Shown: positions 2,824 to 56,484 of the stretch, piece after piece
How positions within the stretch are numbered: position 1 is the first letter of the stretch
Layout of the letters: each line of letters starts with the position of its first letter
Notes under the pieces: model-generated
The model's database searches: none
The model's input: only the letters and a program-made list of their open reading frames with translations
Told to the model about the DNA's origin: nothing
Program-made: the position numbers and the translations under genes
From: an uncultured Candidatus Saccharibacteria bacterium
Lineage (GTDB): Bacteria > Patescibacteriota > Minisyncoccia > Minisyncoccales > JANBVM01
Length of the DNA: 64,000 nucleotides
Assembly (NCBI GenBank): GCA_964450805.1
Contig: CAYVDD010000001.1
Coordinates: forward strand, 134,595 to 198,594
Direction of reading: 5' to 3'

Positions 2824-3710
2824 CAAGGACTTGTTTAAATTAAAAATCCTTTGATGTGCCTTGATAAATTAAAAAAATCTTTGATTTATTATGGGTGCTT
2901 TGTTTATTAATTATTTAGTGGATAGAGTACCTATAAAGTGTTTCTAGGAAGACAAGAAAGAAGTATGCAGGGGCTTAATTTGTTTATCAAAAATTGGTAG
3001 TCAGATTAAGCCTCTGCATTAGAAAAGCAGCGGTTACTGATTTCTCTTTTGGGTGAAATTCCCTTAGGAGAGAGATGAAAGAAGGTGGACAACCCGCCTT
3101 AGGAGAAATTCCGAAGCCGCTATTGGCAGTTAAATAAAAGGTGAAGCGTTGAATGAAAAAACTAATTAATGCTGCATCAGAATATAACAGATATATGTAT
3201 ATTTTATATCTGATGCAAAAAAGTACTTGTTTCAGTTTTTCTGTGAAAGGAAGAAGGTTAGAAAAGTTTAACCTGCTTCTTTCCGGAAGAATGGAGAGGA
3301 TAAGAAAGCGAGCAGGAAAAGTTATTAGGGAGGGAGACTTCGGCTCTCCCAACATGAATACTGGACATTTCGTACAGTATGAAAAGTTTCTTTTAGACGT
3401 TTCGTCACTAGGGGAAATACGAATAATTAGCGAGAGTGAGAGACTTTTAATTTCAATCTCGAAAGAATTTTCTTCTCGCCATTTAATGGTGGGGGAGAAA
3501 ATTTTAGAAGAGATCAAGATTAAAACTTTTTTCCTCCCAGAAGAGATTTTTCTGGGGTCAAAAAAGGTTTTTCCTCCATAAATTTATTGATGCTAGGTCT
3601 AGATCCGGAGGGGAGGACGCGCCCGATGATGGTGATGACAAAGGCTAATTTTCTTTTTTTTTATTAAAAAGGGATAAGGAACTTCATCGTTTCTTATCCC
3701 GTCCTTTCTT

Positions 3711-3766
3711 GAATGATTGCGAAGTAAATTTAACAGGACGAGAGAAGTGGATTCAAGGTGAGGTTA
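3711..3766 (+). repeat. Copy 3 of the ~50-nt conserved motif
   Basis: gaatgattgcgaagtaaatttaacaggacgagagaagtggattcaaggtgaggtta. It is identical to copy 2 over the 3' ~42 nt apart from one A/G change in gcgaRgt. A partial aaggtgaggtt recurs at about 3817-3827. Confidence 0.8.
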
Positions 3767-4012
3767 GACGTTTTCTGTTTTTTCCTAGGTTGTAAAAACT
3801 TTTACGATTTGGAAAAAGGTGAGGTTTAAATAGTCGTTATAAGGCTGTGAGTCAGGTTGGTTTAATTATTTGGTCGGGGATACAGTGTTAACTGTCCCTG
3901 ATTCGAAAGGAGAGGGGACAGATTGGAAAAATCTCTCTCCTCTAACATTGTTCCTTGATTTATATATTTTTAACCACTGATTCACAGTCTTATGACGAGT
4001 ATAAGAAAAGAT

Positions 4013-5449: not shown

Positions 5450-5623
5450 ATGGCAAAAAAGAAAAAACCATTAATAAAAATGAAGTGTGAAGAATGTAAA
5501 AGGATTAATTATTATACACAGAAATCCAAGAAAATGTTTACTGAAGCTAAAGCTAAGTTAGAATTGAAAAAATTCTGTAAATGGTGCAGGAAACATACAT
5601 TACATAAAGAGGCAAAGAAGTAA
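5450..5623 (+). CDS. rpmG: 50S ribosomal protein L33 (57 aa; below the ORF-track size cutoff)
   Basis: My translation is [57 protein letters not shown]. It has the L33 pattern CxxC...LELKK(F/Y)C.WCRKHT.HKE. Confidence 0.85.
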
Positions 5624-5630
5624 GTATACT

Positions 5631-6119
5631 ATGGACAAAAAACATTATCTTCATGAAGTCGCAATTACAGCTATTATTGTAAAGGATGGAAAATATTTAA
5701 TTACCAGAAGATCGCCAAAAAAAAGGAGGTTTCCAAGAATGTGGACAGTACCAGGAGGGAAGATGGAGACAAGCGATTATTTACAATTACCAAAAGACAC
5801 GAAGTATTACTGGTATAATGTTCTGGAGCGTACATTACGAAGAGAAATCAGAGAAGAAGTAGGGATTGAGGTTGATAATATTGAATATGTGACAAGTTTA
5901 GCAATGGTTCACACTGATGGAAATCCATCACTCGTAATCTCTTGTATGGCAGATTATATTTCAGGTGATATTAAGCTTCAGGAAGATGAGTTGGATCATT
6001 ATGCCTGGGTGAGCTTAGAAGAAGCGAAAAATTACCAACTTATTGATGGAATTCATGATGAGCTTGCTATGGCCGAACGAATACGGAAAGGTGAAAAGAT
6101 ACAGTGGAGAAGATTTTGA
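5631..6119 (+). CDS. NUDIX hydrolase
   Basis: Nudix box-like GGKMET...LRREIREEVGIE. Confidence 0.75.
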   Translation: MDKKHYLHEVAITAIIVKDGKYLITRRSPKKRRFPRMWTVPGGKMETSDYLQLPKDTKYYWYNVLERTLRREIREEVGIEVDNIEYVTSLAMVHTDGNPSLVISCMADYISGDIKLQEDELDHYAWVSLEEAKNYQLIDGIHDELAMAERIRKGEKIQWRRF

Positions 6120-6185
6120 ATTGAAAAAATTCTGCAAGTAGTGTTATAAATATACTTTACATAAAAAATCAAAAAGATAATTAAT

Positions 6186-6536: not shown

Positions 6537-6603
6537 GATAAATTATTTTCTTTAAGTTGTGGTATTGTGAAGATAATTCACATAAAGATTCTAAAAAAAA
6601 TAA

Positions 6604-6675
6604 AGGGGCGTGTTGAAGCGGCTATCATAAAGCTCTCCAAAAGCTTTGTCGGGGGTTCGATTCCCTCCGCCCCTG
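6604..6675 (+). tRNA. tRNA-Trp (anticodon CCA)
   Basis: Acceptor aggggcg/cgcccct. Anticodon stem aagct/agctt with loop ctCCAaa. T arm ggggg-ttcgatt-ccctc. No encoded CCA. Confidence 0.8.
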
Positions 6676-6717
6676 CAGGTACAGGAAATCGCTTTTTGAG
6701 CGGTTTTTTGGTAAAAT
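6670..6717 (+). repeat. 48-bp direct repeat, copy A (tRNA-Trp 3' end + terminator hairpin + extended -10)
   Basis: cccctgcaggtacaggaaatcgctttttgagcggttttttggtaaaat matches 7145-7192 at 45 of 48 positions. Confidence 0.85.
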
Positions 6718-7120
6718 GGATTATATGAATGAAGTAGGAGTTTCACAAAAAGCTATAATATTCAATAAGGAGGGTAAATTTTTAACTATTCGCAGGACGA
6801 AAACAGCTCCGGTAAGGCCTAATACCTGGGATCTTCCTGGTGGAGATGTAGATTTTGGAGAAGATGTAACGCAGAGCATCATTAGGGAAATTAAAGAAGA
6901 AACTGGTTTGGAGATTAGCGATTTGGATCTCTTTGATGTGGAATCTCATGTAAATAAAGAGGGTAATTTTTGGATTACCATAGGATATACAGCAAAAACT
7001 ATTTCCGATGAAGTGGCATTGAGCTTTGAGCACGACCAATTTAAATGGGTTACTGCAAAAGAATTTCTAGAATTTGAATCAGCTGACAAGCTTATGCGTT
7101 TTGTTAGGAATTTGAAGTAA
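6716..7120 (+). CDS. NUDIX hydrolase
   Basis: Nudix box GGDVDFGEDVTQSIIREIKEETGLE. The ATG at 6716 overlaps the -10 (TAAAAT, 6712-6717), so the in-frame ATG at 6725, 7 nt after the -10, may be the real leaderless start. Confidence 0.8.
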   Translation: MDYMNEVGVSQKAIIFNKEGKFLTIRRTKTAPVRPNTWDLPGGDVDFGEDVTQSIIREIKEETGLEISDLDLFDVESHVNKEGNFWITIGYTAKTISDEVALSFEHDQFKWVTAKEFLEFESADKLMRFVRNLK

Positions 7121-7144
7121 AATAGTTCGAACGTCCTCTACGAG

Positions 7145-7192
7145 CCCCTGCAGGTACAGGAAATCGCTCTTTGAGCGGTTTTTTGATAGAAT
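7145..7192 (+). repeat. 48-bp direct repeat, copy B, preceded by a tRNA-3'-half-like remnant (gttcgaacgtcctctacgagc, 7125-7145)
   Basis: cccctgcaggtacaggaaatcgctctttgagcggttttttgatagaat. Confidence 0.85.
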
Positions 7193-7200
7193 TTAGGTGT

Positions 7201-7815
7201 ATGAAAAATTTTATTAAAGCAGTTATTTTTGATTTCGGAGGGGTGATAAAAGCGCCTTCTAGAGGATTCTGGATAAAAGACATGGCTGATACATATGAGG
7301 TTTTAGAAGAATTGCTTTTCCAAAAAATACAATCTCCGCTTGAGTTTTTCCGTAAAGGAATTATTAATGAGAATCAGTTTTGGGAACAACTTTCTTTAGA
7401 ATTAAATAAACCTATTCCAGAGAATAAAAATGATTTGTGGAAAAGAGGATATGAGAAAGATTTCTATATCTATCCTGAAATGATTGATTTTGTAAAAAAA
7501 ATCAAAAAACAAAATCTTAAAACAGCTATACTTTCAAATACTATACAACCTCATATTGAAATAATTAGAAATCACAAAGGTTATGAAGAATTTGATATCG
7601 TTATTCTTTCTTGTGAAGTTGGTTTACAGAAACCAGAACAAGATATTTATCTGTTGACAGCTGATCGATTAAAGGTTGAGCCAAAAGAATGTGTTTTTAT
7701 TGATGATTTAAATAAAAATCTTAGACCAGCTAAGGAATTAGGGATGCAAGTAGTGTTAGGTAAAAATCCTAAACAAATTATAAATGACGTTTCGTGTGTC
7801 ATTGGATTAAAATAA
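7201..7815 (+). CDS. HAD-superfamily hydrolase
   Basis: The start MKNFIKAVIFDFGGV carries HAD motif I. A later motif is FIDDLNKNLRPAKELG. The ATG lies 8 nt after TGaTAGAAT. Confidence 0.75.
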   Translation: MKNFIKAVIFDFGGVIKAPSRGFWIKDMADTYEVLEELLFQKIQSPLEFFRKGIINENQFWEQLSLELNKPIPENKNDLWKRGYEKDFYIYPEMIDFVKKIKKQNLKTAILSNTIQPHIEIIRNHKGYEEFDIVILSCEVGLQKPEQDIYLLTADRLKVEPKECVFIDDLNKNLRPAKELGMQVVLGKNPKQIINDVSCVIGLK

Positions 7816-7890
7816 TTCTAATTCTGATATCCTCTACGAGCTATTATATTAAAATTTGATATCATTGTTTAATTATTGTAAGATTAATTT

Positions 7891-8217
7891 ATGAAAAAAT
7901 TTAAACTGAAACTACCAAAATTCTTACTAGGTCTTCCTGTGGCGTTATTATCTTTGAAAGTTTTTTTTGGAGGACTTATTGGTTATCTGTTGGCAGATTT
8001 TTTATCTGGAAAGTTGAACCCTGTGATTTTAGGCATTGGAAATTTTAAGTTTCATATTCATCATTGGATAATGGGTTTTGTTATGCTGATTGTTACTCTG
8101 CTTTATGAGATTTCTCCATTAGCAAACCAATTATTCTATGGATTTTTAGGCGGAGTAATTTTTCAGGGAATTTCTGATTATTCAGATTGGCACAGGATTT
8201 TTTTCAAAAAACATTAA
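7891..8217 (+). CDS. Hypothetical membrane protein
   Basis: Has 3 predicted hydrophobic helices. A bidirectional terminator follows at 8231-8264. Confidence 0.5.
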   Translation: MKKFKLKLPKFLLGLPVALLSLKVFFGGLIGYLLADFLSGKLNPVILGIGNFKFHIHHWIMGFVMLIVTLLYEISPLANQLFYGFLGGVIFQGISDYSDWHRIFFKKH

Positions 8218-8230
8218 TCTTGTATTTAAC

Positions 8231-8264
8231 AAAAAACATGCTGTATTTTCAGCATGTTTTTTTT
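8231..8264. terminator. Bidirectional rho-independent terminator
   Basis: aaaaaacatgctg-tatttt-cagcatgtttttttt: a 9-bp stem flanked by an A-run and a T-run, between convergent genes. Confidence 0.75.
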
Positions 8265-8279
8265 GTTCACTTCAGATTT

Positions 8280-8600
8280 TTATTTCTTTAGATAAGCCGG
8301 CAGTTTTAATCCCAACCTTGATAGATTATTTAAAATTGATCCAGTTAAACCTAAGAGCACAAGTATATATGAAAATTGGCCTACTTTAGCTAAAGATGGA
8401 ATTGCTGTTGGGACCAGCATTAAAATTCCAAAACCCAGAATATAACCCAAAACAGGTTTAAACATAAAATTAGCTACTTTTCCTAAACGAAAATCTTGTT
8501 TTACTAAGGAAGCAATAATCCCTAGTAATACATCAGCTATTATTAATGTAATAACCCACTTCATTTCAGATGTTTTAAGCAAAGTAAGTAAGTCTACCAT
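8280..8600 (-). CDS. Small membrane protein, holin-like (weak resemblance to the Phage_holin_4 family)
   Basis: 106 aa with 3 hydrophobic segments. The KWVITLIIADVLLGIIASLVKQDF pattern resembles holin family N-termini. This call rests on resemblance only. Confidence 0.3.
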   Translation of the reverse strand: MVDLLTLLKTSEMKWVITLIIADVLLGIIASLVKQDFRLGKVANFMFKPVLGYILGFGILMLVPTAIPSLAKVGQFSYILVLLGLTGSILNNLSRLGLKLPAYLKK

Positions 8601-8758
8601 AATTTTTAACAGTTTATTTTTTAAAACAGAACTGATTAGTTTCGACCTTTGATTAGACAGGTTAATTCTGTCCAGAAACGATTACTATATTGTAGAACAA
8701 TTTATTAGATTTAGAAAATTAATTTTCCACAGGCATAAAATATGATAAAATAATCAAT

Positions 8759-10369
8759 ATGAGTAATAAAAAAATCATTGGAATTATAGTTATTGTCCCT
8801 TTGTTAATAATTATTGCTTCTAGAACTATTTTTAAAAAATCAGAAGATGGTTTTGTTTTTGCTGAAGTAAGAATTGGAAATGTAGTTTATGAAATTTCAG
8901 AAACTGGTCAAGTTAAAAAAGGAGAACAAATTGAGCTTGGTTTTAAAACTTCAGGAATTATTGAAAGTATTTATGTTGGAATAGGTGAGGAGGTTAAATC
9001 AGGAGATATCTTGGCAAAACTAGAAAACACTCAGTTAAATATTCAATATACAGAAGCAGAGGCTAATTTAGAATTGTATCAGGCACAGCTTGATAAGTTG
9101 CTGGCTGGTGCAACTCAAGAAGAAATTCAAATTAAACAAACTGCTGTTGACAATGCTCAGATTGCCCTGAACACTGCTAAACAGAATTTAGAGGATATTA
9201 AAGCTCAAGGAGAAGAGGATTTAAATGCTGCTTATGAAGATGCTTTAAATGTTTTAGATGATTCATATTTAAAGATTTCCAATGCTTTTAATTTAGTTGA
9301 TTTAGTTCAAAGAACTTATTTTACAGCAAGCGATCCAGAGTCACTAATTGTCAGAGAGAGTGAAGATAAAATAGAAGACTCTCTGGATTTAATTGAGCCG
9401 TATTTGGATACAGCTGAAGATACTCAGGCAGATCAGGATATTGATACAGCTTTAACTCAGATTAAAACATCTTTAAACAATACTGCTGATGCTTTAAAAA
9501 CAGTAAGAGATGCTTGTGAAACAGCAAGTTATGAAAATATAGTTTCTTCTGCTGATAAATCTTCTTTAGATACTCACAGAGGACATGTTAATACTGCCTT
9601 AACAAATACTGTAAATTCTCAACAAACCATCTCTTCAACTAAATTAGATAATAGTGTTAATATTAATACTTATCAGGCTGAAGTTGATACAGAAGAGGGT
9701 GATTTAAAAGCAGCCGAGGATGATTTAGCTAAACTTGTTGCTCCTGCAAGACAAGAAGATGTCAATTTGAATAAGGCCCAGGTAAAACAAGCACAAGCAC
9801 AGGTCTGGCTTTTACAGAATCAAATTGCAGATACTAAACTTAAAAGTCCAGTTGATGGACAGATTATTAAAATTGAAAAAAGAATAGGGGAGTTGGTCCA
9901 GTCAGCTTTAAAAGACAGTGTAATAACTATTCTTCCTGCTGACCCTTATAAAATAGAAGTTGATATTTACGAAGAAGATGTTGCTAAGATGTCTGTAAAT
10001 AATCCAGTTGATATTTCTTTGATTGCTTTTCCTGACCAGGTTTTAACAGGAAAAGTAATTTCAATTGATCCTGCTGAGAAAATAATAGATGGAGTTGTTT
10101 ATTATGAGGTTTCCATTTCCCTGGATGATTTGTATGAAGGGATTAAGCCAGGTATGACTGCTGACTTAGTTATCAGGACTGATTTCAAAGAAAATGTTTT
10201 AACTGTTCCGGAAAAAGCAGTGAAAAAAAAGGATGGCAGGACAATAGTTCAGGTTTTAGAACAGAATAAGACTGTGGAGCGTGAAATAGAGATTGGCCTT
10301 AAAGGAACTAATAATCTTGTAGAAGTTGTTTCTGGGCTTGAGCAGGGTGAGCAAGTTATTTTACCTTAA
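8759..10369 (+). CDS. HlyD/MacA-type periplasmic adaptor (membrane fusion protein) of an ABC efflux system
   Basis: N-terminal TM helix, lipoyl-like GDILAKLE, a long coiled coil, a C-terminal beta-barrel, and translational abutment to the ABC ATPase gene. Confidence 0.8.
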   Translation: MSNKKIIGIIVIVPLLIIIASRTIFKKSEDGFVFAEVRIGNVVYEISETGQVKKGEQIELGFKTSGIIESIYVGIGEEVKSGDILAKLENTQLNIQYTEAEANLELYQAQLDKLLAGATQEEIQIKQTAVDNAQIALNTAKQNLEDIKAQGEEDLNAAYEDALNVLDDSYLKISNAFNLVDLVQRTYFTASDPESLIVRESEDKIEDSLDLIEPYLDTAEDTQADQDIDTALTQIKTSLNNTADALKTVRDACETASYENIVSSADKSSLDTHRGHVNTALTNTVNSQQTISSTKLDNSVNINTYQAEVDTEEGDLKAAEDDLAKLVAPARQEDVNLNKAQVKQAQAQVWLLQNQIADTKLKSPVDGQIIKIEKRIGELVQSALKDSVITILPADPYKIEVDIYEEDVAKMSVNNPVDISLIAFPDQVLTGKVISIDPAEKIIDGVVYYEVSISLDDLYEGIKPGMTADLVIRTDFKENVLTVPEKAVKKKDGRTIVQVLEQNKTVEREIEIGLKGTNNLVEVVSGLEQGEQVILP

Positions 10370-11083
10370 ATGTCAGAAAAAGTTATTGAACTAAATAATG
10401 TCTGGAAGGTTTATCAGTTGGGAAAAATAGAGCTGACAGTTTTAAAAGGTGTGAGCCTCGATGTAACTCGAGGTGATTTTGTAAGTATTATGGGGCCGTC
10501 AGGTTCTGGTAAATCAACCCTTTTAAACATGATAGGATGTTTGGATATTCCAACCAAAGGAAAAGTTTTTTTAAAAGGAAAAGACGTTTCAAAACTGACA
10601 GAAGATGAACTTTCTCAGTTCAGAGGAAAAACTATTGGTTTTGTATTCCAAGAATTTAATTTACTGGCTCATTTAACAGCTATTGAGAATGTAATGCTGC
10701 CAATGGTTTTCCAAGGAAAACCACTGGAGCAAAGAAAAAAAAGAGCAGAAAAGCTTTTAATATCTGTTGGCTTGGAAAAAAGAATTAACCATCAGCCAGC
10801 TGAGCTTTCAGGCGGTGAAAGACAAAGAGTTGCTATTGCCAGGGCTTTTGCTAATGACCCAGAGCTTGTTATTGCTGATGAACCAACTGGTAATTTAGAT
10901 TCAGTGACTGGCAAGAAAATAATGGAAGTTTTAAAAACATTTCATAAAAAAGAGAAAAAGACCATTGTTGTTGTGACTCACGACCCTAATATTGCTGATT
11001 ATAGTGAGAATATATTTAATATTAAAGATGGTGAAATTATTGTTAACCATCAAAAAGCATCACAGTCTTTATGGAAGAAATGA
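10370..11083 (+). CDS. ABC transporter ATP-binding protein (MacB/LolD type)
   Basis: Walker [10 protein letters not shown], signature [14 protein letters not shown], Walker B LVIADEPT. Confidence 0.9.
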
Positions 11084-12297
11084 AAGAATATTTTTATATT
11101 GCTTTAAGAAATCTTAAAACAAGGTCTTTAAGAAGCTGGCTTACTATTTTTGGTATTGTTATAGGGGTGTTTTTAATTATTAGCTTATTGTCTTTATCAG
11201 AAGGAATTAAAGCCAGTATCACACAGCAATTAAGGTCTTTGGGAGGAGAAATGATTTTTGTTATGCCTGGTGATATTTCCAATCCTTTTATAGCTATGAT
11301 GGGAGGTGAAAAACTGGAAAAAGAAGATATTGATGCTATTAGAAAAACAGAAGGAGTAGAGGAGGTTCTTACCACTTCTTATGCGGCTAGTATTATGAGG
11401 TATGAAGAAGAAAGCAAACAGGTTATTTTAATGGGCATGTCTTGGGAACAAAGCTTGGAGATTTTAAAGAATTATCAGGGATGGAGCTTAGCTAAAGGCA
11501 GGTGGCCTGTTACAGGCAAGAGAGAGATTATAGTTGGACAGCAAGTAGCTTATGAGATATTTAAACAGGATATTGAGGTTGATTCAGAAGCAATAATTAA
11601 AGGCAGAACTTTTGAAATAGTAGGAATATTGAACTCTTTAGGCAATAAAACTGATGACAGCGGAGTATATATTGATATGCCTATTTACCAGAGCTTGACT
11701 GGAGAAAAAAGAGGAAGCGCTCAGATAGCTATGGTAAAGATTGAAGAAGACGCTCCATTGGATGAAACAGCTGAAAATATTAAAGAGAATCTTCAAAAAA
11801 CAAGGAAAAGAAGAGCTGGGACTGATGAGGCTGATTTTAGTGTTATTACTTCTGATGCTATTGGTGATATTGCAGGCAATATATTAGCTGTTATTCAGTT
11901 GGCTATAATAGCTTTTGCCAGTATTGCTATTGTTGTTGGAGGTATTGGAATAACAAATACAATGTTTACTTCAGTCAGAGAAAGAACCAGAGAAATAGGA
12001 ATTATGAAAGCTGTTGGCGCTAAGAATATAGCTGTGTTATCTATTTTCTTATTTGAAGCTGCAATCATTGGTTTTGGCGGAGGAATAGGAGGTACATTGT
12101 TAGGTGTTGGTTTTGCCAAAGCGATTGAGTTATACGGATTAGCTCATCCTTTATTTTATTTCAGAGCATCAATAAGTATTGGTTTGATTATTTTTGGTTT
12201 AATTTTTTCTTTTTTAGTTGGTTGTTTGGCAGGGTTTTTCCCAGCTAAAAAAGCAGCCAGCTTAAAGCCAGTTGATGCATTAAGAAGATTAGAATAA
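11071..12297 (+). CDS. ABC transporter permease (FtsX/MacB-type)
   Basis: ALRNLKTRSLRSWLTIFGIVIG at the N-terminus, a periplasmic domain, a C-terminal FtsX-like 3-TM bundle, and PAKKAASLKPVDALR. Confidence 0.85.
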   Translation: MEEMKEYFYIALRNLKTRSLRSWLTIFGIVIGVFLIISLLSLSEGIKASITQQLRSLGGEMIFVMPGDISNPFIAMMGGEKLEKEDIDAIRKTEGVEEVLTTSYAASIMRYEEESKQVILMGMSWEQSLEILKNYQGWSLAKGRWPVTGKREIIVGQQVAYEIFKQDIEVDSEAIIKGRTFEIVGILNSLGNKTDDSGVYIDMPIYQSLTGEKRGSAQIAMVKIEEDAPLDETAENIKENLQKTRKRRAGTDEADFSVITSDAIGDIAGNILAVIQLAIIAFASIAIVVGGIGITNTMFTSVRERTREIGIMKAVGAKNIAVLSIFLFEAAIIGFGGGIGGTLLGVGFAKAIELYGLAHPLFYFRASISIGLIIFGLIFSFLVGCLAGFFPAKKAASLKPVDALRRLE

Positions 12298-12383
12298 TTC
12301 ATTTTATAAGAATCTCAAAGTATAAAAAAATTTGGTTTTTTATTAATTTACTAAGAAGAGGCATTGTTCTTTATAGCGATTAC

Positions 12384-12412
12384 TTGACAAATCTAAAATA
12401 GTATTATATACT
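12384..12412 (+). promoter_or_regulatory. Putative promoter (TTGACA-17-TATACT)
   Basis: cTTGACAAATCT... shares the CTTGACAAAT start with P1 and P2 at 1462 and 1526, and is followed by TTAGAC. Confidence 0.5.
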
Positions 12413-12452
12413 TAGACTGTTCTTTTCAAAATAATTATAAGAGGTAAATAAA

Positions 12453-12704
12453 ATGTTAAGAGGTCATTGCTCTTTATGTATGGATGAAGGAGAAATCGGA
12501 GGGTGTCCGAAATGTGGACTCTGGCCGATGCCTCCTGAAAAAGAAATAAATGGTGAGGTCTATACCTTCTTTAGAAACGTAGAAAGGAAGAAAAAAGACC
12601 TCTATGAAGATCAAGATGAATATATAATCCTTGACGATGCAAGGAGTATATATAATGACCCTCTTCCAAACGATGTATCTGTTTGGAGGAAGAAAAAATT
12701 TTAA
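12453..12704 (+). CDS. Hypothetical small zinc-ribbon protein (83 aa)
   Basis: CSLC-x8-CPKC near the N-terminus and AGAGG 8 nt upstream of the ATG. It has its own promoter and terminator. Confidence 0.5.
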   Translation: MLRGHCSLCMDEGEIGGCPKCGLWPMPPEKEINGEVYTFFRNVERKKKDLYEDQDEYIILDDARSIYNDPLPNDVSVWRKKKF

Positions 12705-16001: not shown

Positions 16002-17192
16002 TTAAATTTCTTGCTTAATTTTAGCTGGAAATTCAGGAAAAAAGCCCTGTTTATCCCAATAAGGGTCTGCTGTTATAAATCTTTTATTACAGAACAGCTC
16101 ATAAATATGAAGGGGCTTTTTTTCTTTTTTCGGAGTTATCTCTATTTTACTGCATTTTACGCAGTATTTAATTGTGCAGGCTTGGTCACAGTGGCTACAG
16201 ATAAAAGATTCCACAAAATGAGAGCAGGCTGTGCGCAGCTCTTTTCTTTCCCTTCTTCTGCTCATTTGTTGCTCTTGTTTCTTTGATAGGGCTCTTTGAA
16301 GCTGTTCAAAAGAAGTTTCTTTTATTAGTTTGAATTTTTTACCGCTGTATTTTTGAAATAATATTTCCTGTTCTTTTTTATACTCATCAAAATTATTTGC
16401 GTTTGTTAGTTCAAATTCATTGAGTATTTTCATGAGTTTTGTTTGAAGTTTAGGGAATTCAGCATATCTTTCAACTAGGATTAAGCCATAGCTGGCTAGT
16501 TTAGGTCTGCTTGCTTTTTCAGCTTCTTTATTGTTTCTTTCTATCCACCAGCGCGGAAGATAAATGGTTTCTACTTTTTCTTCAATAAAAAATCTGATTA
16601 ATCTGATTGTTCCATAAGGGCTTGTTATCAGTCTGCCATAGTCATAGCGTACTGTAGGCGGATTGTTAACTGTGAGCATTGCAACTGAATTTATAGTGTC
16701 TCTGTGCGCTTTATCAGTATGATAAAGAAACCATTGCTTTTCTTCTGGAACCAGGATTACTTCATTAATAGTCATTTCTCTTGTTTCCAGGATTTTCCTA
16801 ATCGTTCTTTCATTATTCAGACCACCTTTTATTAGCTCTATATCGCGGCTACTTAATTCAAAACCTGTTTTTTTTAGTTTTTCTTTTAGTTCTATAACTT
16901 TTTCATTTAAAAGAGTCAGGTTTTTTTTCTTTGTTCCAGTAAACGTAAGAATTAAATCAATATCAAGAGGTTTTTCCCAGGCATTTTCTATGGCTCTGTT
17001 TTTTTTAATCTTTTTTTCATTTTTAAGAATCTGACCTAAAATTGCTTTGGCAAAGCCTCCTTTGATAATTATGTTTTTTGTTGGAGCCAAAACCTCTAAG
17101 ACTTTAATAATCTTTTTTGGCAGTAATTTCATCATTTCTTTTTCATCTATTTCAATCCTTGAGATTTTTCGTTTTAGAGGTATTAAATGCAT
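16002..17192 (-). CDS. Divergent class-II nucleotidyltransferase (CCA-adding/poly(A) polymerase head-domain-like) with a C-terminal Cys-rich tail
   Basis: GGFAKAILG...DIDLI resembles motif A (GGxVRD...DxD) with an insertion. TREMTINEV, ~70 aa further on, resembles motif B RRDxTINA. The tail is CSHFVESFICSHCDQACTIKYCVKCS. Confidence 0.45.
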   Translation of the reverse strand: MHLIPLKRKISRIEIDEKEMMKLLPKKIIKVLEVLAPTKNIIIKGGFAKAILGQILKNEKKIKKNRAIENAWEKPLDIDLILTFTGTKKKNLTLLNEKVIELKEKLKKTGFELSSRDIELIKGGLNNERTIRKILETREMTINEVILVPEEKQWFLYHTDKAHRDTINSVAMLTVNNPPTVRYDYGRLITSPYGTIRLIRFFIEEKVETIYLPRWWIERNNKEAEKASRPKLASYGLILVERYAEFPKLQTKLMKILNEFELTNANNFDEYKKEQEILFQKYSGKKFKLIKETSFEQLQRALSKKQEQQMSRRRERKELRTACSHFVESFICSHCDQACTIKYCVKCSKIEITPKKEKKPLHIYELFCNKRFITADPYWDKQGFFPEFPAKIKQEI

Positions 17193-36764: not shown

Positions 36765-36836
36765 GGCCCCATCGTCTAGCGGCCAGGACGCCTGGTTCTC
36801 AACCAAGTAACAGGGGTTCGATTCCCCTTGGGGCCA
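36765..36836 (+). tRNA. tRNA-Glu (anticodon CTC)
   Basis: Aligns position-by-position with the bacterial tRNA-Glu architecture. Acceptor ggcccca/tggggcc. D region gtctagcggccaggac. Anticodon loop ttCTCaa. T arm agggg-ttcgatt-cccct. Confidence 0.8.
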
Positions 36837-36906
36837 CAATTGTATAAAATTAATGTAATTATATAGAAAAATCGCCAGAAAGGCGTTTTTTTGATAAAAT
36901 AAAAAT

Positions 36907-37482
36907 ATGAAAAAGATATTCTTCGTTACTTCCAATAAAGGTAAATATAGTTCTGCTAAAGCTTTTTTAAAGAAATACGGAATTGAAGTTGTTCAAAAGA
37001 GCTTAGAAATTCCTGAGTCTCGTGGCAGTTTTGAAGAGATTGCAGGACAGAAAGCAAGATTTGGATATAAAATCTTAAAAAAACCTGTCATAGCAATGGA
37101 TGCTGGTTTTTTTATTCATTCTCTTGATGGATTCCCAATGATGTTCACTAATTTTGTTCTTGGAACAATTGGTGTAGAAGGAATTATTAAACTTGTTAAA
37201 AATAAAAATAAGTCTTGCGAATTTCGAGAGGTACTTTCTTATTGTGACGGCCCCAGAGCAAAACCAAAGTTATTCAAACGGGTGGTTAAGGGTAGAATTT
37301 CTAATAAACCTCTTGGCAAGGTAAAACCGTATCATTGGTCTGAGCTTGCTTTGATTTTTATTCCTGAGAGAGAAAAAAGAACAATGGCAGAAATGACTAA
37401 GAAAGAGTTTATGAATTTTCGCAAGCGGGTTGATAATAATTCTCATTGGGAAGATTTTGGTAAATTTTTCTCAAAAGCTTAA
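36907..37482 (+). CDS. Non-canonical purine NTP pyrophosphatase (RdgB/HAM1 family-like)
   Basis: FVTSNKGK, EIPESRGSFEEIAGQKA and AMDAGFFIHSLDGFP parallel the ITPase motifs. The ATG lies 6 nt after TGaTAAAAT. Confidence 0.65.
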   Translation: MKKIFFVTSNKGKYSSAKAFLKKYGIEVVQKSLEIPESRGSFEEIAGQKARFGYKILKKPVIAMDAGFFIHSLDGFPMMFTNFVLGTIGVEGIIKLVKNKNKSCEFREVLSYCDGPRAKPKLFKRVVKGRISNKPLGKVKPYHWSELALIFIPEREKRTMAEMTKKEFMNFRKRVDNNSHWEDFGKFFSKA

Positions 37483-51314: not shown

Positions 51315-51323
51315 CTAGCCTAA

Positions 51324-51375
51324 GCGCGGTTCGAGAGACCGAGATGTGTCGGTTCGAATCTTGACGCCAGAGCAG
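51324..51375 (+). other. Decayed tRNA T-arm / 3'-half-like remnants immediately downstream of tRNA-Gln
   Basis: cGGTTCGAGAgaccgag and gtcGGTTCGAATCttgacgccagagca contain T-loop consensus sequences but no complete cloverleaf. Confidence 0.5.
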
Positions 51376-51422
51376 GTTTTAGCTCGCCAATGTATTTTTT
51401 ACAAAAATGAAATAATAAAAAT

Positions 51423-52094
51423 ATGATAAAAGCTATATTTTTTGATTGGGGTAATGTCTTTGAGACACTCCCGAAAGAAAGGGAAAATAAATTAGATGTA
51501 ATCCTAAAACCTTTTGGATTTACTTGGGAGAATTTCCATCCATATTGGAGACAGTTTTATCTTTTGAGGTCAGCTGGGAAGATAACAACCGATAGAGATT
51601 TTGAAATTTACATAAGGAGAGTTTTGCAAAAAAGCATACCCGTAAAAAAAATCATTAAAATCACCATTGATTGCCATATAATTCCTAAGGATCATATTAA
51701 AGTCGTAAAGGAGTTAAAAAAGAAATATAAAGTAGGAGTTTTATCCAATTACGTTGAGGGGTGGATAAAACAGGTTCTTAAAAATTATAGGATCGAAAAT
51801 TTATTTGATTCTCTTACTATTTCTTCGGCAGTCGGAGAAAGAAAACCAAATGCTAAGATTTATTACGAAGCATTAAAGAAATTAGCCGTAAAGCCGAAAG
51901 AATCAGTTTTTGTCGCCGATGAGGTGGCAGAGGATTTAGTTGTGGCAAGCGGTTTGGGAATGAAAACTATTTGGTTTGATACAAAGGCAAAAGGATGGTG
52001 GGGCAAAGACGATAGGGATATTCTAAAGATCTATAAACCAGATGCAACTGTTAAAAATCTTAGAGAAGTTATTGGCACAGTCGAAAGGATGTAA
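51423..52094 (+). CDS. HAD-superfamily hydrolase
   Basis: MIKAIFFDWGNVF (motif I), VLSNY (motif II), ERKPNAKIY and FVADE. Confidence 0.75.
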   Translation: MIKAIFFDWGNVFETLPKERENKLDVILKPFGFTWENFHPYWRQFYLLRSAGKITTDRDFEIYIRRVLQKSIPVKKIIKITIDCHIIPKDHIKVVKELKKKYKVGVLSNYVEGWIKQVLKNYRIENLFDSLTISSAVGERKPNAKIYYEALKKLAVKPKESVFVADEVAEDLVVASGLGMKTIWFDTKAKGWWGKDDRDILKIYKPDATVKNLREVIGTVERM

Positions 52095-52116
52095 AGTTTT
52101 TGGTAGAGTAAATAAT

Positions 52117-52233
52117 ATGATGAGGAAAATTATAGGATTAAAAAGAAAAAAAGTTAGGCTTCTTTCCTATAATCCAGTGTGGAAAAACTTATATGCAAAA
52201 GAAGTAAAATTACTTCGTTCTGTTATAGGATAA
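52117..52233 (+). pseudogene. N-terminal fragment of a GrpB-family (UPF0157) gene, truncated at a cassette boundary
   Basis: MMRKIIGLKRKKVRLLSYNPVWKNLYAKEVKLLRSVIG resembles GrpB N-termini (V.L..YdP.W...F..E...L). It stops after 38 aa, right at ggataatGGTTCTAAC. Confidence 0.5.
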
Positions 52234-52358
52234 TGGTTCTAACGTTGTTCACAATGTCCAACAACATATAATATAATGTCTTTAAATTGGCGAAATTTAC
52301 TTAAGATTGCATATTTCAAAGCAAAAGAAAGCGCTAATCCATCCACCCAGAATGGAGC
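52211..52358 (+). repeat. Duplicated segment A-left (boundary motif, promoter and 5' part of the dCMP deaminase gene); partner at 56507-56653
   Basis: By-eye alignment is near-identical from ggataatggttctaac through cccagaatggagc. Confidence 0.85.
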
Positions 52359-52764
52359 TGTTTTGATTAATGACAAAGGAGATATCATTCTTTCTGCGGT
52401 AAATAGTTTTCCAGAAGGAGTAGCAAGAACTCAAGAGCGAAACGTTAAGCCCTTACGTTTTAAATTCAGCGTACATGCAGAACGTAATGTGATTTTTCAA
52501 GCTGCAAGGCTTGGTATAAAAACAAAAGGACTTACTATGGTATGTCCATGGGCAGCATGTAGTGATTGTGCTCAGGCCATAATTCAAGCAGGTATTAAAC
52601 GATTAGTAGTCCACAAACAAGCCCTTAATAGATCTAGTAGATGGCAGGAGAACATAGAACTTGCTTTTGCTATGCTTCGCGAAGCTAGGGTTAAAATTAT
52701 TATTTTTGACGGTAAGATAGGGGTGGGTAAGATTTTACGAAGCAAAGAATTTTGGAATCCATGA
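52276..52764 (+). CDS. dCMP/CMP deaminase (ComEB-like, zinc-binding)
   Basis: VHAERN (the HAE zinc/catalytic motif) and CPWAACSDCA (CxxC). Confidence 0.8.
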   Translation: MSLNWRNLLKIAYFKAKESANPSTQNGAVLINDKGDIILSAVNSFPEGVARTQERNVKPLRFKFSVHAERNVIFQAARLGIKTKGLTMVCPWAACSDCAQAIIQAGIKRLVVHKQALNRSSRWQENIELAFAMLREARVKIIIFDGKIGVGKILRSKEFWNP

Positions 52765-52840
52765 TAGATGAACTTATTTTTTTTATTAAACTTGTATAAA
52801 AGAGATTCTAACCTCGTCCAGTCCCCGGAGTTATTTTGCC
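52574..52840 (+). repeat. Duplicated segment A-right (3' part of the deaminase gene + downstream boundary); partner at 56654-56921
   Basis: The coding part is almost identical; I saw one mismatch (cgattagtag vs cgattggtag). The flank is more diverged. Confidence 0.85.
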
Positions 52841-52876
52841 GAGATTGTTTCTCGAGTTCTTGTTATAATGGAGTAT

Positions 52877-53428
52877 ATGAAAATAACAAAGCGAGAGACA
52901 GTTTATAAGGGTAAATTCATAAAAATTGTGGCTAAGCATTTTGAGAGAGAAAACGGAAGAAAAGGAATATGGGAGACATTAGAAAGAATTATCCCCCAAA
53001 AGAAAGCAGTAGTAGTTTTTGCCCTAACTAAAGACAAAGAAGTAATTTTAGAAAAAAGCTATAGAATTCCATTTGAGTGTTATGTTTTAGAGCTTCCTGC
53101 TGGTCTTTGTGATAAAGAGAACGAAAGCGAAAAAGAAGTGGCTAAAAGAGAGCTTTTAGAAGAGACAGGTTATAAAGCAAAGGAACTTATTCGCATTTTC
53201 TGCACTACAGGCGATATGGCTTTAACAGACTTAGAAATAGTTTATTTTTTTGCTCCTGACGTTGAATTTATAGGGAATATAAATAAGGATGATGCAGAAG
53301 AGATTGAGGTAGTTAAAGTTCCTCTTGAACAACTGGTTGATACAGCCATCAATCCTCCTCAAGGAATTAAAATAAGCTTTGATCTACTATCAGTTTTACC
53401 AGTTTTACGAAAGAAAGATTTGATATAG
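52877..53428 (+). CDS. NUDIX hydrolase (ADP-ribose pyrophosphatase-like)
   Basis: ELPAGLCDKENESEKEVAKRELLEETGY Nudix box. The ATG at 52868 overlaps the -10 TATAAT (52864-52869). The ATG at 52877 lies 7 nt after it. Confidence 0.78.
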   Translation: MKITKRETVYKGKFIKIVAKHFERENGRKGIWETLERIIPQKKAVVVFALTKDKEVILEKSYRIPFECYVLELPAGLCDKENESEKEVAKRELLEETGYKAKELIRIFCTTGDMALTDLEIVYFFAPDVEFIGNINKDDAEEIEVVKVPLEQLVDTAINPPQGIKISFDLLSVLPVLRKKDLI

Positions 53429-53586
53429 TTGCTTTTTAGTTAACTTTTGATCAAACAGGTTCTAATATCGTCCGTCCCTCGGAGAGTTCGAGACCTGTTA
53501 GCCTGAGGCGGTAGTGCAACCTGAAGGCGTAGTTTAGGGACTCGCTCAAAGAGCGGTTTTTTGGTAGAATGGTTTAATATAAAAAT

Positions 53587-54228
53587 ATGATTTCATTTGT
53601 ATATTTTGATTTAGGTGGAGTTGTGGTGAGGGATCTTTATGAAGCAGATAAATGGACTGATATGAAGCGTGATATTGGAATAAAAGTTGAAAGTGACAAA
53701 GAATTCGATCGGTTTTGGGAGAAGCATGAAAAAGAAGTTTGTACAGCAGATAAAGATGTCGACACGTTAATTCCTTTACTTGAAAAGAAATTTCATTTGA
53801 GTTTTCCTGCTGGCTTTTCAATATTAGCGGATTTCGTCAGTAGATTTGAACCGAATAAAGAAATTTGGCCAGTTCTTGAGAGAATTAAACAAGATTGTAA
53901 GATTGGTCTCTTGACTAATATGTATCCGCGAATGTTCTCTGCCATAACGGAAAAAGAAATTATGCCTCCAGTTACTTGGGATGTGATTATTGATTCCAGT
54001 ATTGAGGGTTGCCGAAAACCAAATTCAGGTATTTTTGAACTTGGTGAGCAAAAAGCCGATGTTAAGAAGGATAATATATTATTTATAGACAATAAAATTA
54101 AGAATATAAATGCGGCCAAGGATTTCGGTTGGCAAACTTTTTTCTATGATATTGGAGACCATAAAGAATCCTGTTTCGAACTTTTACATTATTACAATCA
54201 AAAAAAAAGTGCAAAGGTTGTTAAATAA
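53587..54228 (+). CDS. HAD-superfamily hydrolase
   Basis: MISFVYFDLGGVVV (motif I), LLTNM, CRKPNSGIF and FIDNK. Confidence 0.72.
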   Translation: MISFVYFDLGGVVVRDLYEADKWTDMKRDIGIKVESDKEFDRFWEKHEKEVCTADKDVDTLIPLLEKKFHLSFPAGFSILADFVSRFEPNKEIWPVLERIKQDCKIGLLTNMYPRMFSAITEKEIMPPVTWDVIIDSSIEGCRKPNSGIFELGEQKADVKKDNILFIDNKIKNINAAKDFGWQTFFYDIGDHKESCFELLHYYNQKKSAKVVK

Positions 54229-54358
54229 ATAATCAAATATAGAATTGAATATAATTGTATAGAGAATTGCCAGAAAGGCGATTCTAGTGCTCGGTATCGG
54301 GAGACCGAGACGCGTCACATGTGTTATAATAAAAAAGATTATTAAACCTAAAATAATT

Positions 54359-55258
54359 ATGCAAAATAAAGCCTTTTCTAAAATATTAGTTTTAATTATT
54401 CTCGTTGTTATCATTAGTGGAGGGATTTTGATTTCTCAGAAAGTATCACCAGTGGCCGCACTTGATGAGTCAAATCCCTGGCTATTTATTCCAGTTGGTG
54501 ATGATTACATGGTAATCCATGAAGGACAATCAGGGATTGTTGAATATAAAGAGGGGACAAAAATTCAAGTAAATGGTTTTAATCTCGGTAAGGTTGAATT
54601 TCGGGCTACTTCCATAGAAGGTGAGGAAAATATTCTAATAGGAACTGCTGTAAAAAGAGAGAAAGCATATCTGGAAGAAAAAGGAGAGTCTTGGTTTTTT
54701 ACTTTTCCCTCTAACCAAACTATATCTAATCTTCTAGCCATCGCCTTTGATTCAAAAGGAAATGAAGCTGGAAGAATTAATTTTCCGTATTTTGAGAATG
54801 TCACAAAAGAAGAAAGGGAAGAAATTGCTAACTGGAAAACTTATAGCAACGAAAAATATGGATATGAGATAAAATATCCAGCTCATTATACAGCAAAAGA
54901 ATCTGACCAAGGAAAGAGTTTAATTATAGGAACCCGTGTTATATATTGTTACAGTATTTCAATCACAGAAAATGTTTCTTCTTTGGAAGAATTAAAATCT
55001 TCATGGCAGGATTCATTTGATGAATTACTTGGAAAATCTCCTAAACGTCCAGAAATAGAAGTAACCTGGAAAGACACATTGGTTTCCGGGGAAAAAGCAA
55101 TAGAGAGGAGTTATGAGCAGTTTATTGGTGGATACACGGGCATCACTCATTCCACCGGCGTTATAAAAGATTCTACCGCTTATGGAATTAAGTTACAAAA
55201 TGGTTCGGAAGAAGAATATTATAAAATCCTTTCTACTTTTAGTTTTTTGGTATTATAG
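54359..55258 (+). CDS. Hypothetical N-terminally anchored/secreted protein
   Basis: The start MQNKAFSKILVLIILVVIISGGIL (signal anchor) was chosen. A TGtTATAAT promoter lies at about 54327-54335. Confidence 0.5.
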   Translation: MQNKAFSKILVLIILVVIISGGILISQKVSPVAALDESNPWLFIPVGDDYMVIHEGQSGIVEYKEGTKIQVNGFNLGKVEFRATSIEGEENILIGTAVKREKAYLEEKGESWFFTFPSNQTISNLLAIAFDSKGNEAGRINFPYFENVTKEEREEIANWKTYSNEKYGYEIKYPAHYTAKESDQGKSLIIGTRVIYCYSISITENVSSLEELKSSWQDSFDELLGKSPKRPEIEVTWKDTLVSGEKAIERSYEQFIGGYTGITHSTGVIKDSTAYGIKLQNGSEEEYYKILSTFSFLVL

Positions 55259-55283
55259 TCCCGATATGTGATAAAATAAAAAT

Positions 55284-55595
55284 ATGCTAAAGATAAATTC
55301 AATAGAAAAGATTTATTTACTGTTCGGGTTAAGTATTCTTTCTGTCATTCTGCATAATGCTATTTCGGCTTATTTCAAGATTGAAGAGCCAGTATTTTTC
55401 ATTTTGACTTTTCTTTTTCTTCTTGCTTTCGTTATTTCCGTCATTTACTACACAGTTTCTTATATCAAGAAAGGGGAGCCGAAAGATTTGTGGAAAATCG
55501 GCTTTTTGGGACTACTCGGATTATTTGGATTGGTCGCCAGTCCTGGTTTCTACGGTCTTTTCGGTCTATTCGGATTTTTCGGAGCAAGAAATTGA
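55284..55595 (+). CDS. Hypothetical small membrane protein with a C-terminal GLFG-repeat segment
   Basis: Two TM helices, then GFLGLLGLFGLVASPGFYGLFGLFGFFG. Confidence 0.45.
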   Translation: MLKINSIEKIYLLFGLSILSVILHNAISAYFKIEEPVFFILTFLFLLAFVISVIYYTVSYIKKGEPKDLWKIGFLGLLGLFGLVASPGFYGLFGLFGFFGARN

Positions 55596-55605
55596 AGAGG
55601 CATAA

Positions 55606-55657
55606 AAAATGAGACACCGTGAGACACCCTTAAATATTGTCTCATTTGTCTCATTTT
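55606..55657 (+). terminator. Ornate terminator hairpin built from TGAGACA heptads
   Basis: aaaaTGAGACAccgTGAGACA (5' arm) pairs with TGTCTCAttTGTCTCAtttt (3' arm). A fifth TGAGACA copy lies at 55690-55696. Confidence 0.55.
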
Positions 55658-55830
55658 AGCTTCAAAACGCCCCGACCGAGGCGGGTTGATGAGACAACTC
55701 AAAAAGGTCCAAATTACTCTTTAAAATCTCGGTTCTAGACCGAGGATGCCAACACTCAATTTTGAACTCAAAATTAATTAGCTCCCATGAAAGATAGAAC
55801 TCTTTGGTATTTTTTGATAAGATAAAAAAG

Positions 55831-56484
55831 ATGATAGTCCAAATTTACGAAATTAGCACTCCTCTAGAAGCAATAAATATAGCAGAATTAGGTGTAGATC
55901 ATATAGGGGTTTTGGTGGGAAAAGGTAAGTATCCTCGTGAATTACCAATTGAAAAAGCAAAGCTGATTTTTCAATCACTACCGCCTAATGCTAAGAGTGT
56001 TGTTTTATCTTTATCAAATGATTTGGCAGAAATATTTGAAATTATTGAGCAAATTAAGCCAGATATACTTCATTTGGGGAGTGATGAAAAGATGCTTTCC
56101 ATAGATAAAGTAAGGGAGATCAGAAAAAAATATTCCAAATTGAAAATAATGAGAACTATTGCAGTGATAGACGAGAATACTATAAAACTCGCAAAAGAGT
56201 ATGAAACCATCGTTGATTATTTGCTTTTGGATACTTATAAGTCTCAACTTGGAGCTACTGGAGAGGTTCATAATTGGGATATAAGTAGAAAGATAGTAAA
56301 TTCAGTTAAGATTCATGTTATTCTGGCTGGCGGTTTGGGAATTGACAATGTAGCTGATGCTATTAGAAAAGTTAGACCAACAGGCGTGGATTCAAAAACA
56401 AAAACAGATAAAATTGGTAGTCACGAAAAAGACATTGAAAAGGTAAAAGAGTTTGTTAAAATTGCTAAATCGCAACTACGATAG
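55831..56484 (+). CDS. Phosphoribosylanthranilate isomerase (TrpF)-like TIM-barrel protein
   Basis: LLDTYKSQLGATGEVHNWD, ILAGGLGIDNVADAI and RPTGVDSKTKTD parallel the TrpF motifs. The ATG lies 7 nt after TGaTAAGAT. Confidence 0.65.
   Translation: MIVQIYEISTPLEAINIAELGVDHIGVLVGKGKYPRELPIEKAKLIFQSLPPNAKSVVLSLSNDLAEIFEIIEQIKPDILHLGSDEKMLSIDKVREIRKKYSKLKIMRTIAVIDENTIKLAKEYETIVDYLLLDTYKSQLGATGEVHNWDISRKIVNSVKIHVILAGGLGIDNVADAIRKVRPTGVDSKTKTDKIGSHEKDIEKVKEFVKIAKSQLR

Follow-up and report, generated by a model that had tools for sequence, protein, structure and literature searches.

The 64-kb window analysed here (contig CAYVDD010000001.1; coordinates are window positions, on the plus strand unless stated otherwise) contains a tRNA-Trp(CCA) gene followed by two short single-gene units, one encoding a MutT-like NUDIX hydrolase (hereafter NUDIX2) and the other a HAD-family hydrolase. 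After them the conserved backbone of the region resumes with the gene of a 108-aa membrane protein (Table 1). A sequence-only reading of this locus had described a 48-bp direct repeat around the NUDIX gene (6670-6717 and 7145-7192, 45/48 matches) and had proposed that cassettes accrete at the tRNA 3' end, in an attL/cassette/attR arrangement with NUDIX first and HAD second. What the repeat marks is the junction of two single-gene cassettes, NUDIX followed by HAD, that were acquired independently of each other, and the 3' end of tRNA-Trp is a tRNA-anchored gene-capture site without a recombinase gene of its own. The proposed accretion is supported by empty sites and by differing cargo in related genomes.

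The junction module 3' of tRNA-Trp

The repeat search of the window returned the repeat as a 49-nt pair (6669-6717 versus 7144-7192, 94% identity, 46/49), and the 41-nt repeat consensus was found exactly twice in the 64 kb, against 0.00 occurrences expected from 100 shuffles. ARAGORN placed the tRNA-Trp gene at 6604-6676 and Rfam at 6604-6675 (RF00005, 53.2 bits). Because of this 3' boundary, the first copy of the repeat contains the last 6 acceptor bases and the discriminator. As had been read from the sequence, this copy starts inside the tRNA gene and continues with a terminator and an extended -10, on the evidence of ARAGORN and Rfam, RNA folding and the sequence itself. The part of the repeat beyond the tRNA gene, hereafter R1, forms a 14-bp hairpin with a U tract after it (RNA fold, in which the paralogous copy was folded), and an extended -10, read by eye, closes both copies. 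Each cassette is thus a predicted expression unit of its own, since R1 would terminate the upstream transcript and supply an extended -10 promoter element.

The repeat is the right portion of a junction module of about 75 nt, composed of a tRNA-like sequence named X (GGTTCTAAC-ATCCTCTACGA), the 8-bp core GCCCCTGC and R1; in the window, the X-core-R1 joint occupies 7123-7192. X aligns with the T-arm/acceptor region of the tRNA given a 5-nt insertion, and the 8-mer core is present at all the cassette junctions of the window and of the related loci L012 and L082. The tRNA-like remnant that had been noticed before the second copy, and in part again after the HAD gene, was confirmed: TCCTCTACGAGC from the first X recurs at 7830-7841 (2 matches in the window versus 0.06 expected), and the longer X pair (7123-7145 and 7819-7841) shows 78% identity in the repeat search. 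The second, degenerate X is orthologous to the X that precedes the membrane gene in L012, as window 7806-8973 aligns to L012 11644-12799. The second copy of core and R1 is 91% identical to L082 14182-14249, and in general the X-core-R1 modules are 86-93% identical to one another, both within and between genomes.

The nhmmer profile of the module matched only the tRNA-Trp arrays of the window, L012 and L082, always including the tRNA-like part; a widespread promoter-terminator module lacking tRNA-derived sequence, which the sequence-only reading had named as the finding that would speak against it, is therefore not what the repeat represents. Weak matches to X only were obtained 3' of tRNA-Trp in the more distant L107 and L046, with tails that resemble the local tRNA-Trp end. 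No match to X or to R1 was found in the viral contigs scanned. The Rfam scan of the window, L012 and L082 returned above threshold only tRNAs, plus one match inside a helicase gene.

Two candidate signals were discarded. X was considered as a structured RNA or an attC-like hairpin and rejected, as the folds show nothing conserved in it and the only conserved hairpin is the terminator. The bare 9-mer GRTTCTAAY is not enriched 3' of tRNA-Trp over all loci (8 versus 6-8 in controls), and only the composite site, formed by the 9-mer and the tRNA-like tail, is informative.

Table 1. Features of the tRNA-Trp locus and of the adjacent rpmG region in the window
Feature	Position	Strand	Remarks
rpmG (L33) 3' end, copy in use	5558..5626	+	left copy of the duplication; 69 nt, 75% pair
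NUDIX1	5631..6119	+	single-gene insertion into the rpmG 3' end (Pfam)
Displaced old rpmG 3' end	6115..6183	+	decaying, in-frame TAG; adjoins MazG
tRNA-Trp(CCA)	6604..6676	+	3' end as attachment point, attB/attL side
Core copy 1, GCCCCTGC	6669..6676	+	acceptor 3' strand, discriminator and one further base
R1 copy 1	6677..6717	+	hairpin terminator ~6686-6706, T run, extended -10 TGGTAAAAT at 6709-6717
Inserted segment	6678..7850 (1,173 bp)	+	R1, NUDIX2, X, core, R1', HAD, X' (blastn versus L175)
NUDIX2, MutT-like NUDIX hydrolase	6716..7120	+	cassette 1 cargo; Pfam PF00293, 1.8e-17
X1, AGTTCGAACGTCCTCTACGA	7123..7143	+	right end of the NUDIX2 cassette; tRNA-Trp-3'-like; aligns to X of L012 and L082
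Core copy 2 and R1'	7144..7192	+	core 7144-7151; terminator hairpin; extended -10 TGATAGAAT
HAD-family hydrolase	7201..7815	+	cassette 2 cargo; PF00702 1.3e-18, PF13419 4.7e-15
X2, TAATTCTGATATCCTCTACGAGC	7819..7841	+	degenerate right end of the HAD cassette; CCCTG of the core gone
Native downstream DNA	7851..8217	+	membrane-gene promoter region and 108-aa membrane-protein gene (7891-8217); backbone, not cargo

Empty sites and other cargo in relatives

The backbone was compared by tblastn and ARAGORN across 160 loci (labelled L and a number). On the basis of L33-anchored species-representative loci and TrmD-anchored metagenome loci, the window itself falls within Patescibacteria, adjacent to Candidatus Nealsonbacteria; L012, a complete genome of 647 kb (CP179889.1), encodes proteins 80-95% identical to those of the window. 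The backbone order is RNase III, S16, KH, TrmD, tRNA-Tyr, tRNA-Thr, L33, tRNA-Trp, a block with the 108-aa membrane protein, a 106-aa holin-like protein and HlyD-ABC-permease, and then PIMT, MltG, L10 and L7/L12. The gap between L33 and tRNA-Trp is at most 235 bp in 80/117 loci and 350-4,000 bp in the remaining 37, and tRNA-Trp lies less than 200 bp from the next backbone gene in 26/59 loci, with distances up to 7.4 kb in the rest. The membrane gene, whose product has no Pfam match, is kept directly 3' of tRNA-Trp in L003, L004, L009, L172-L177 and others.

The closer relatives (L172-L177) were reached through homologues of the membrane protein, and they provided the empty site that the sequence-only reading had pointed to. 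In L172-L174 (one species, three samples), L175, L176 and L177 (CP179890.1), tRNA-Trp stands directly before the membrane gene, with neither X nor R1. The tRNA end CCGCCCCTGC is followed in L172-L174 by TAAAATATG and the membrane gene, and in L175 by AAAGATTTGATAAC, which corresponds to the region upstream of the membrane gene in the window and L012. In the blastn comparison with L175, window 6600-6677 aligned to 8047-8124 and window 7851-12303 to 8125-12581. Both flanks align and nothing does between them, so 6678-7850 is inserted DNA. Coherently, X and R1 arrive with the insert, since both are missing at the empty sites. For the same reason (its absence in L172, L175, L176 and L177), the possibility that R1 is the native trailer of the tRNA was dropped. 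The single-copy state, tRNA-Trp-R1-HAD, was found in no relative examined.

Two further genomes are occupied by other genes. L012 has the same R1 after the end of tRNA-Trp, then a 324-aa gene whose product gives a weak Ogg-like match; AGTTTCGACATCCTCTACGAGCCCCTG separates this gene from the membrane gene, and the insertion amounts to 1,093 bp relative to L176. L082 (metagenome contig SDBT01000397.1) carries 3' of tRNA-Trp an array of 4,529 bp with at least four plus-strand cassettes, and its sister L172, 92-96% identical on both flanks, is empty. The two flank alignments between L082 and L172 overlap by 8 nt, which are the core, and these bound the insertion. From the tRNA outwards, the array includes a NUDIX gene, a Zn-ribbon protein and a P-loop kinase-like protein, each followed by X-core-R1; the fourth position holds a NUDIX-like protein followed by reverse-strand rhodanese and DsbA genes, then X-core, and the start codon of the membrane gene comes fifth. 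The proximal NUDIX cassette has a distinct terminator/promoter on its left and the usual X on its right, with the core alone repeated around it. Target duplication cannot explain this cassette, because only the 8-bp core is repeated.

The same X-core-R1 module parts unrelated genes in three genomes, and the site is polymorphic for presence and absence, being occupied with differing cargo in the window, L012 and L082 and empty in L172-L177. This bears on the static explanation, in which an old local duplication of a terminator-promoter module was inherited vertically without any mobility. In its favour, intergenic regions of these genomes commonly have a terminator hairpin that runs into TTTTTGnTAnAAT. 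However, relatives at 80-96% identity have empty sites or other cargo, the module was found by nhmmer at no other loci, and every copy bears the tRNA-like X. An identical arrangement in all relatives, which had been indicated as the signature of such an ancient duplication, is contradicted by the different cargo of L012 and L082, and we regard this explanation as close to negligible.

As regards the cargo, the HAD cassette gene has no counterpart in the L012 or L082 loci. Outside the source genome, no homologue of NUDIX2 exceeds 73% identity, and the nearest ones lie in unrelated contexts; neither a tRNA nor X occurs near those at 70-72%, so the same cassette is not demonstrated at a second site. 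The start codon of NUDIX2 is probably the ATG at 6725, because the -10 overlaps the first ATG at 6716. The alignment of the NUDIX paralogues, suggested in the sequence-only reading (for those at 5631, 6716 and 52877) as a way to separate recent duplication from independent acquisition, gave 25-28% identity, which indicates that they were acquired independently. Recent duplication of either NUDIX or HAD paralogues was rejected (25-35% identity). The GC content of the cargo genes is 0.29-0.38 versus 0.315 for the window, and base composition is uninformative on foreign origin.

The tRNA-Trp gene itself varies among close relatives. Two "alleles" were observed, with wholly different D-arm, anticodon stem and variable loop and with shared T-arm and acceptor 3' strand: one in the window (6604-6676), L083 and L175, and the other in L012 (10542-10616), L082 (12115-12189), L172 and L176. 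The tRNA-Trp of the window is 91% identical to those of L175 and L083. The distribution of the alleles departs from the similarity of the flanks, which suggests that the tRNA-Trp body has itself been exchanged between relatives. In L040, two perfect tandem units of 459 bp come after tRNA-Trp (3020-3950). The unit encodes a 116-aa GIY-YIG protein, has inverted ends of about 14 nt and is flanked by CCTCCGCCCCTGC, the 13-nt end of the tRNA. Here a small element of another kind uses the same target.

Routes of insertion

The explanation we favour, and consider fairly probable, is that cassettes lacking an integrase were serially integrated, in a site-specific manner, at the 3' end of tRNA-Trp by an enzyme acting in trans. 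Each unit would consist of the core GCCCCTGC, the R1 terminator and promoter, one gene and X, the latter being a mimic of about 20 nt of the T-loop/acceptor region of tRNA-Trp. Once circularised, the unit would carry X-core-R1 as its attachment site, and recombination of its core with the identical 8 bp at the tRNA-Trp end would insert it, regenerating the tRNA (attL) and leaving X-core distally (attR). Where a cassette is already present, X-core-R1 would remain as the joint, as proposed for 7123-7192, and the window would hold two such units, with NUDIX2 proximal to the tRNA and HAD after it. From this arrangement we infer the circular intermediate, the order of arrival and, as the catalyst, a site-specific recombinase whose gene lies at another place in the genome. 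For this last role a single candidate was seen: the only tyrosine recombinase of the window, an Xer-like protein encoded on the minus strand at 62867-63895 (TIGR02224, 1.6e-65), about 56 kb from tRNA-Trp. This protein matches integron integrase weakly and partially, and it is 83% conserved in a relative.

Several observations weigh against serial site-specific integration. The terms attL and attR imply a site-specific recombinase, and none was found in or beside any array. Pfam detected no recombinase among the cargo genes, and in the census of 126 open reading frames (ORFs) occupying these slots there was no integrase among the 25 most frequent of 72 families; the census is dominated by DUF5674, MazG, peptide deformylase, DNA methylases and restriction enzymes, NUDIX, GIY-YIG and HicAB. 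The tblastn search with the Xer-like protein gave no match in the tRNA-Trp loci, and the remaining large ORFs of the window encode housekeeping functions. No circular or excised form was observed, the full module is known from three genomes only, and the RNA folds revealed no conserved secondary structure or dyad symmetry in X. Furthermore, both R1 copies of the window share the variant GCAGGTACAGG, versus GCAATTTCAGG in L012 and L082, which is as compatible with intragenomic duplication or gene conversion as with import. The -10 parts of R1, unlike the part with GCAGGTACAGG or GCAATTTCAGG, pair across genomes. The R1 copies are therefore mosaic, which suggests recombination or gene conversion inside the module, and the near-identity of the two copies in the window could stem from homology-driven insertion or from gene conversion. 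Lastly, a neighbouring gene was inserted by duplication of its target and without X.

This neighbour, NUDIX1, interrupts the 3' end of rpmG (the L33 gene) upstream of tRNA-Trp. Both copies of the rpmG end in the window map by blastn onto one L175 segment, with an overlap of 62 nt, and the rpmG 3' end is single-copy in L012, L083, L175 and L176. The displaced end meets MazG just as intact rpmG does in the alignment with L012 and L083. NUDIX1 is present in L082 and L172-L174 and absent in L012, L083, L175, L176 and L177. As judged from these alignments, it is a separate insertion, independent of the tRNA and of the tRNA-Trp cassettes. The duplicated target of about 65 bp and the lack of X indicate that a second, homology-based route operates in the same genome, and the second L33 C-terminal fragments found before tRNA-Trp in L011, L095, L107, L108 and L141 indicate that insertion with long target duplication recurs.

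The spacer between MazG and tRNA-Trp (6545-6603) exceeds those of L012 and L082 by about 45 nt and weakly resembles the rpmG 3' end (71% over 28 nt); it may be a third, older rpmG remnant or scar.

The same route could also account for the tRNA-Trp array. Under homology-driven insertion, NUDIX2 would have entered an existing tRNA-Trp-R1-HAD arrangement through the module, using its 50-75 nt or so as homology; the repeat would be a duplicated target, no dedicated recombinase would be required, and modules once formed would serve as portable homology for later exchange. The adjacent NUDIX1, with its rpmG-end duplication of about 62-69 bp that is single-copy in relatives, is exactly an event of this kind, and the extra L33 fragments, the lineage-specific variant common to the two R1 copies of the window and the failure to find an integrase point in the same direction. 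Moreover, insertion with long target duplication has been documented, mostly in naturally competent bacteria, with repeats of 46-47 bp overlapping the 3' ends of genes or tRNAs (Nobusato/Furuta/Kobayashi; Furuta et al., PMC2853133). As in those cases, direct repeats longer than 30 bp lie over a gene or tRNA 3' end, there are no mobility genes, and, in the case of NUDIX1, relatives have a single copy. The NUDIX1/rpmG insertion matches this class exactly, and the 49-bp repeat around NUDIX2 matches it formally. On the other hand, the cargo consists of NUDIX and HAD genes rather than restriction-modification systems, and the NUDIX2 insert carries the conserved X end. The repeat around NUDIX2 is not simply a duplicated target, because only 8 bp are shared at the true empty sites. 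For the same reason homology leaves the first insertion at an empty site unexplained, together with the X that ends every cassette and is absent from empty sites, and the proximal cassette of L082, where the left module is another one and the core alone is repeated. We therefore consider it rather unlikely that homology alone built the array; the NUDIX2 step could have occurred through homology of the module.

The cassettes might also be the debris of larger islands bearing an integrase, tycheposon-like or phage-like, that inserted at tRNA-Trp and were afterwards stripped of integrase and replication modules. Additive islands seeded at tRNA genes, in which partial-tRNA repeats and degenerated elements occur, have been described in Prochlorococcus, the host of the tycheposons (bioRxiv 10.1101/2020.12.28.424599). 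Exact 12-nt repeats of the tRNA-Trp 3' end were found downstream on the same strand more often than in controls (8 versus 0-3), and at other loci these slots are occupied by restriction-modification, toxin-antitoxin and GIY-YIG genes. Nevertheless, the three independent arrays contain no integrase, integrase pseudogene or replication gene, and their cassettes are neatly delimited, with one gene, one terminator and one promoter apiece. The joints, 86-93% identical to one another, do not resemble the product of random decay, and the module was absent from the viral contigs scanned. Such an origin appears improbable to us.

Even so, tRNA-seeded additive islands are the closest match to the tRNA-Trp array in logic. 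In both cases insertion takes place at the 3' end of a tRNA, the tRNA is regenerated, and partial-tRNA repeats mark the element ends; accretion by the tRNA generates a hypervariable region that differs between close relatives, and the genomes are streamlined. A far-end repeat of the 3' part of the tRNA (here the 8-bp core and X) and intact empty sites, both expected of tRNA-targeting elements, are present. In contrast with tycheposons, the cassettes of the window, L012 and L082 have no integrase or replication module in or beside them, and the window units hold a single gene in 0.4-0.7 kb rather than spanning several kilobases. Identity with the tRNA is limited to about 8 bp plus a diverged T-loop mimic, and the joints are a conserved module of about 75 nt that also bears the terminator and promoter.

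Integron-like architecture and other loci of the window

The sequence-only reading had compared the tRNA-Trp locus to an array 3' of tRNA-Gln, and this parallel is supported by the variable content and by the GGTTCTAAC-type sites found there. Downstream of DnaX and tRNA-Gln (51316-57300), gene content is entirely different in L168, L170 and L171, with DnaX 84-89% identical. Sites of the form (AACA)GGTTCTAAC..GTCC follow genes in L168 and L170, and 5/6 matches of the window to GRTTCTAAY lie on the plus strand within 52235-56894. The tails of the sites in this region (CCCCGGAG and CCCTCGGAG) resemble the tRNA-Gln 3' end (CCCCGCAG). A dCMP-deaminase cassette occurs twice (52218-52801 and 56513-56881, 99% identity), the second being a pseudogene with an internal deletion of 214 bp; the copy starts 17 nt before one GGTTCTAAC-type site and ends about 5 nt before the next. 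The steep fall of identity right before these sites suggests recent cassette-level copying inside the region. In style the region resembles the tRNA-Trp locus, and it appears to be a second variable region anchored at a tRNA. A 38-codon ORF (52118-52234) runs up to the left edge of the dCMP-deaminase cassette and appears to be what is left of the N-terminal part of a gene that cassette insertion cut short.

A broader and more tentative proposal is that Nealsonbacteria-like members of the candidate phyla radiation (CPR) possess an integron-like cassette system without an integron integrase; we see this as possible, if doubtful. The X-type mimic (GGTTCTAAC... with an acceptor-like tail) would act like attC and the 3' ends of tRNA-Trp and tRNA-Gln like attI, with the tail of the mimic matched to the tRNA (GCCCCTG for Trp, CCCCGGAG for Gln) and a host-encoded recombinase, for example the conserved Xer-like one, or an unrecognised enzyme moving the cassettes in trans.

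The sedentary chromosomal integrons of Vibrio are cassette arrays with near-identical attC repeats. Their likeness to the tRNA-Trp arrays lies in cassettes that mostly hold one gene and share one orientation, in a conserved repeat borne by the cassette, in a single fixed insertion point and in small accessory enzymes as cargo. The differences are also clear: there is no intI by the insertion point, where MazG and rpmG lie upstream of tRNA-Trp, and the tRNA 3' end takes the place of attI. According to sequence and folds, X has no attC-type imperfect palindrome and the module no GTTRRRY at its 3' end, and each cassette has its own promoter and terminator. Xer-dependent integrative elements (IMEX) use host Xer recombinases; like them, the cassettes have no recombinase of their own, and apart from a conserved Xer-like enzyme no recombinase was seen in the window. 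The cassettes target a tRNA end and not dif, and the likeness to IMEX is a lead only. A transposon or miniature inverted-repeat transposable element (MITE) is a poor match, as X and R1 have no inverted partner in the window and the motif lies on one strand only, unlike the L040 GIY-YIG unit with its inverted ends. In the literature searched on integrons, attachment sites and tRNA islands, we found no description of arrays of this kind in Patescibacteria, which is not proof of absence. Taken together, the array follows the logic of tRNA-seeded additive islands in an integron-like architecture.

Gene movement in CPR genomes of about 0.6 Mb is poorly understood, because they contain few recognisable mobile elements. 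The locus offers a precise and minable signature of gene gain, made of the 8-bp tRNA-end core, the X motif and the terminator/promoter module, and both occupied and empty alleles are known from near-conspecific genomes. In function, the cargo genes form a coherent set: MutT-like NUDIX hydrolases, an Ogg-like glycosylase, HAD phosphatases, a P-loop kinase-like protein, MazG and dCMP deaminase. Judging from this set, what is being traded would be nucleotide sanitation and salvage, in organisms unable to make their own nucleotides. If the integron-like system exists, it would be a dedicated route for swapping such genes among ultra-small symbionts. If a trans-acting recombinase is responsible, the arrangement would be an integron-like one built on tRNA mimicry, and the enzyme with its short site could be of practical use.

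Other features of the window were also recorded. A gene for an 83-aa Zn-ribbon protein (12453-12704) lies between the permease gene and that of a 100-aa membrane protein and is missing there in L172; its product is 35% identical to a cassette-borne protein of the L082 tRNA-Trp array. In L012, the 5' end of the gene for the 100-aa membrane protein is duplicated upstream of the intact gene (16147-16230 versus 16375-16460), a further case of a long gene-end duplication. Within 36765-37482, another nucleotide-sanitation gene, Ham1/ITPase (36907-37482), lies 3' of a tRNA, directly after tRNA-Glu. The Rfam match inside the UvrD-like helicase ORF (n00280, 71.4 bits at 59812-59913), a Clostridioides small RNA (sRNA) annotated as "included into helicase gene", most likely reflects conservation of the coding sequence rather than an sRNA. 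The stretch between S16 and the KH-protein gene, about 2.7 kb here and about 0.5 kb in L012, is poor in convincing ORFs and gave no Rfam family at the gathering threshold; it holds three 60-nt copies of a sequence (2571-2630, 2764-2823 and 3706-3765) that are 82-88% identical.

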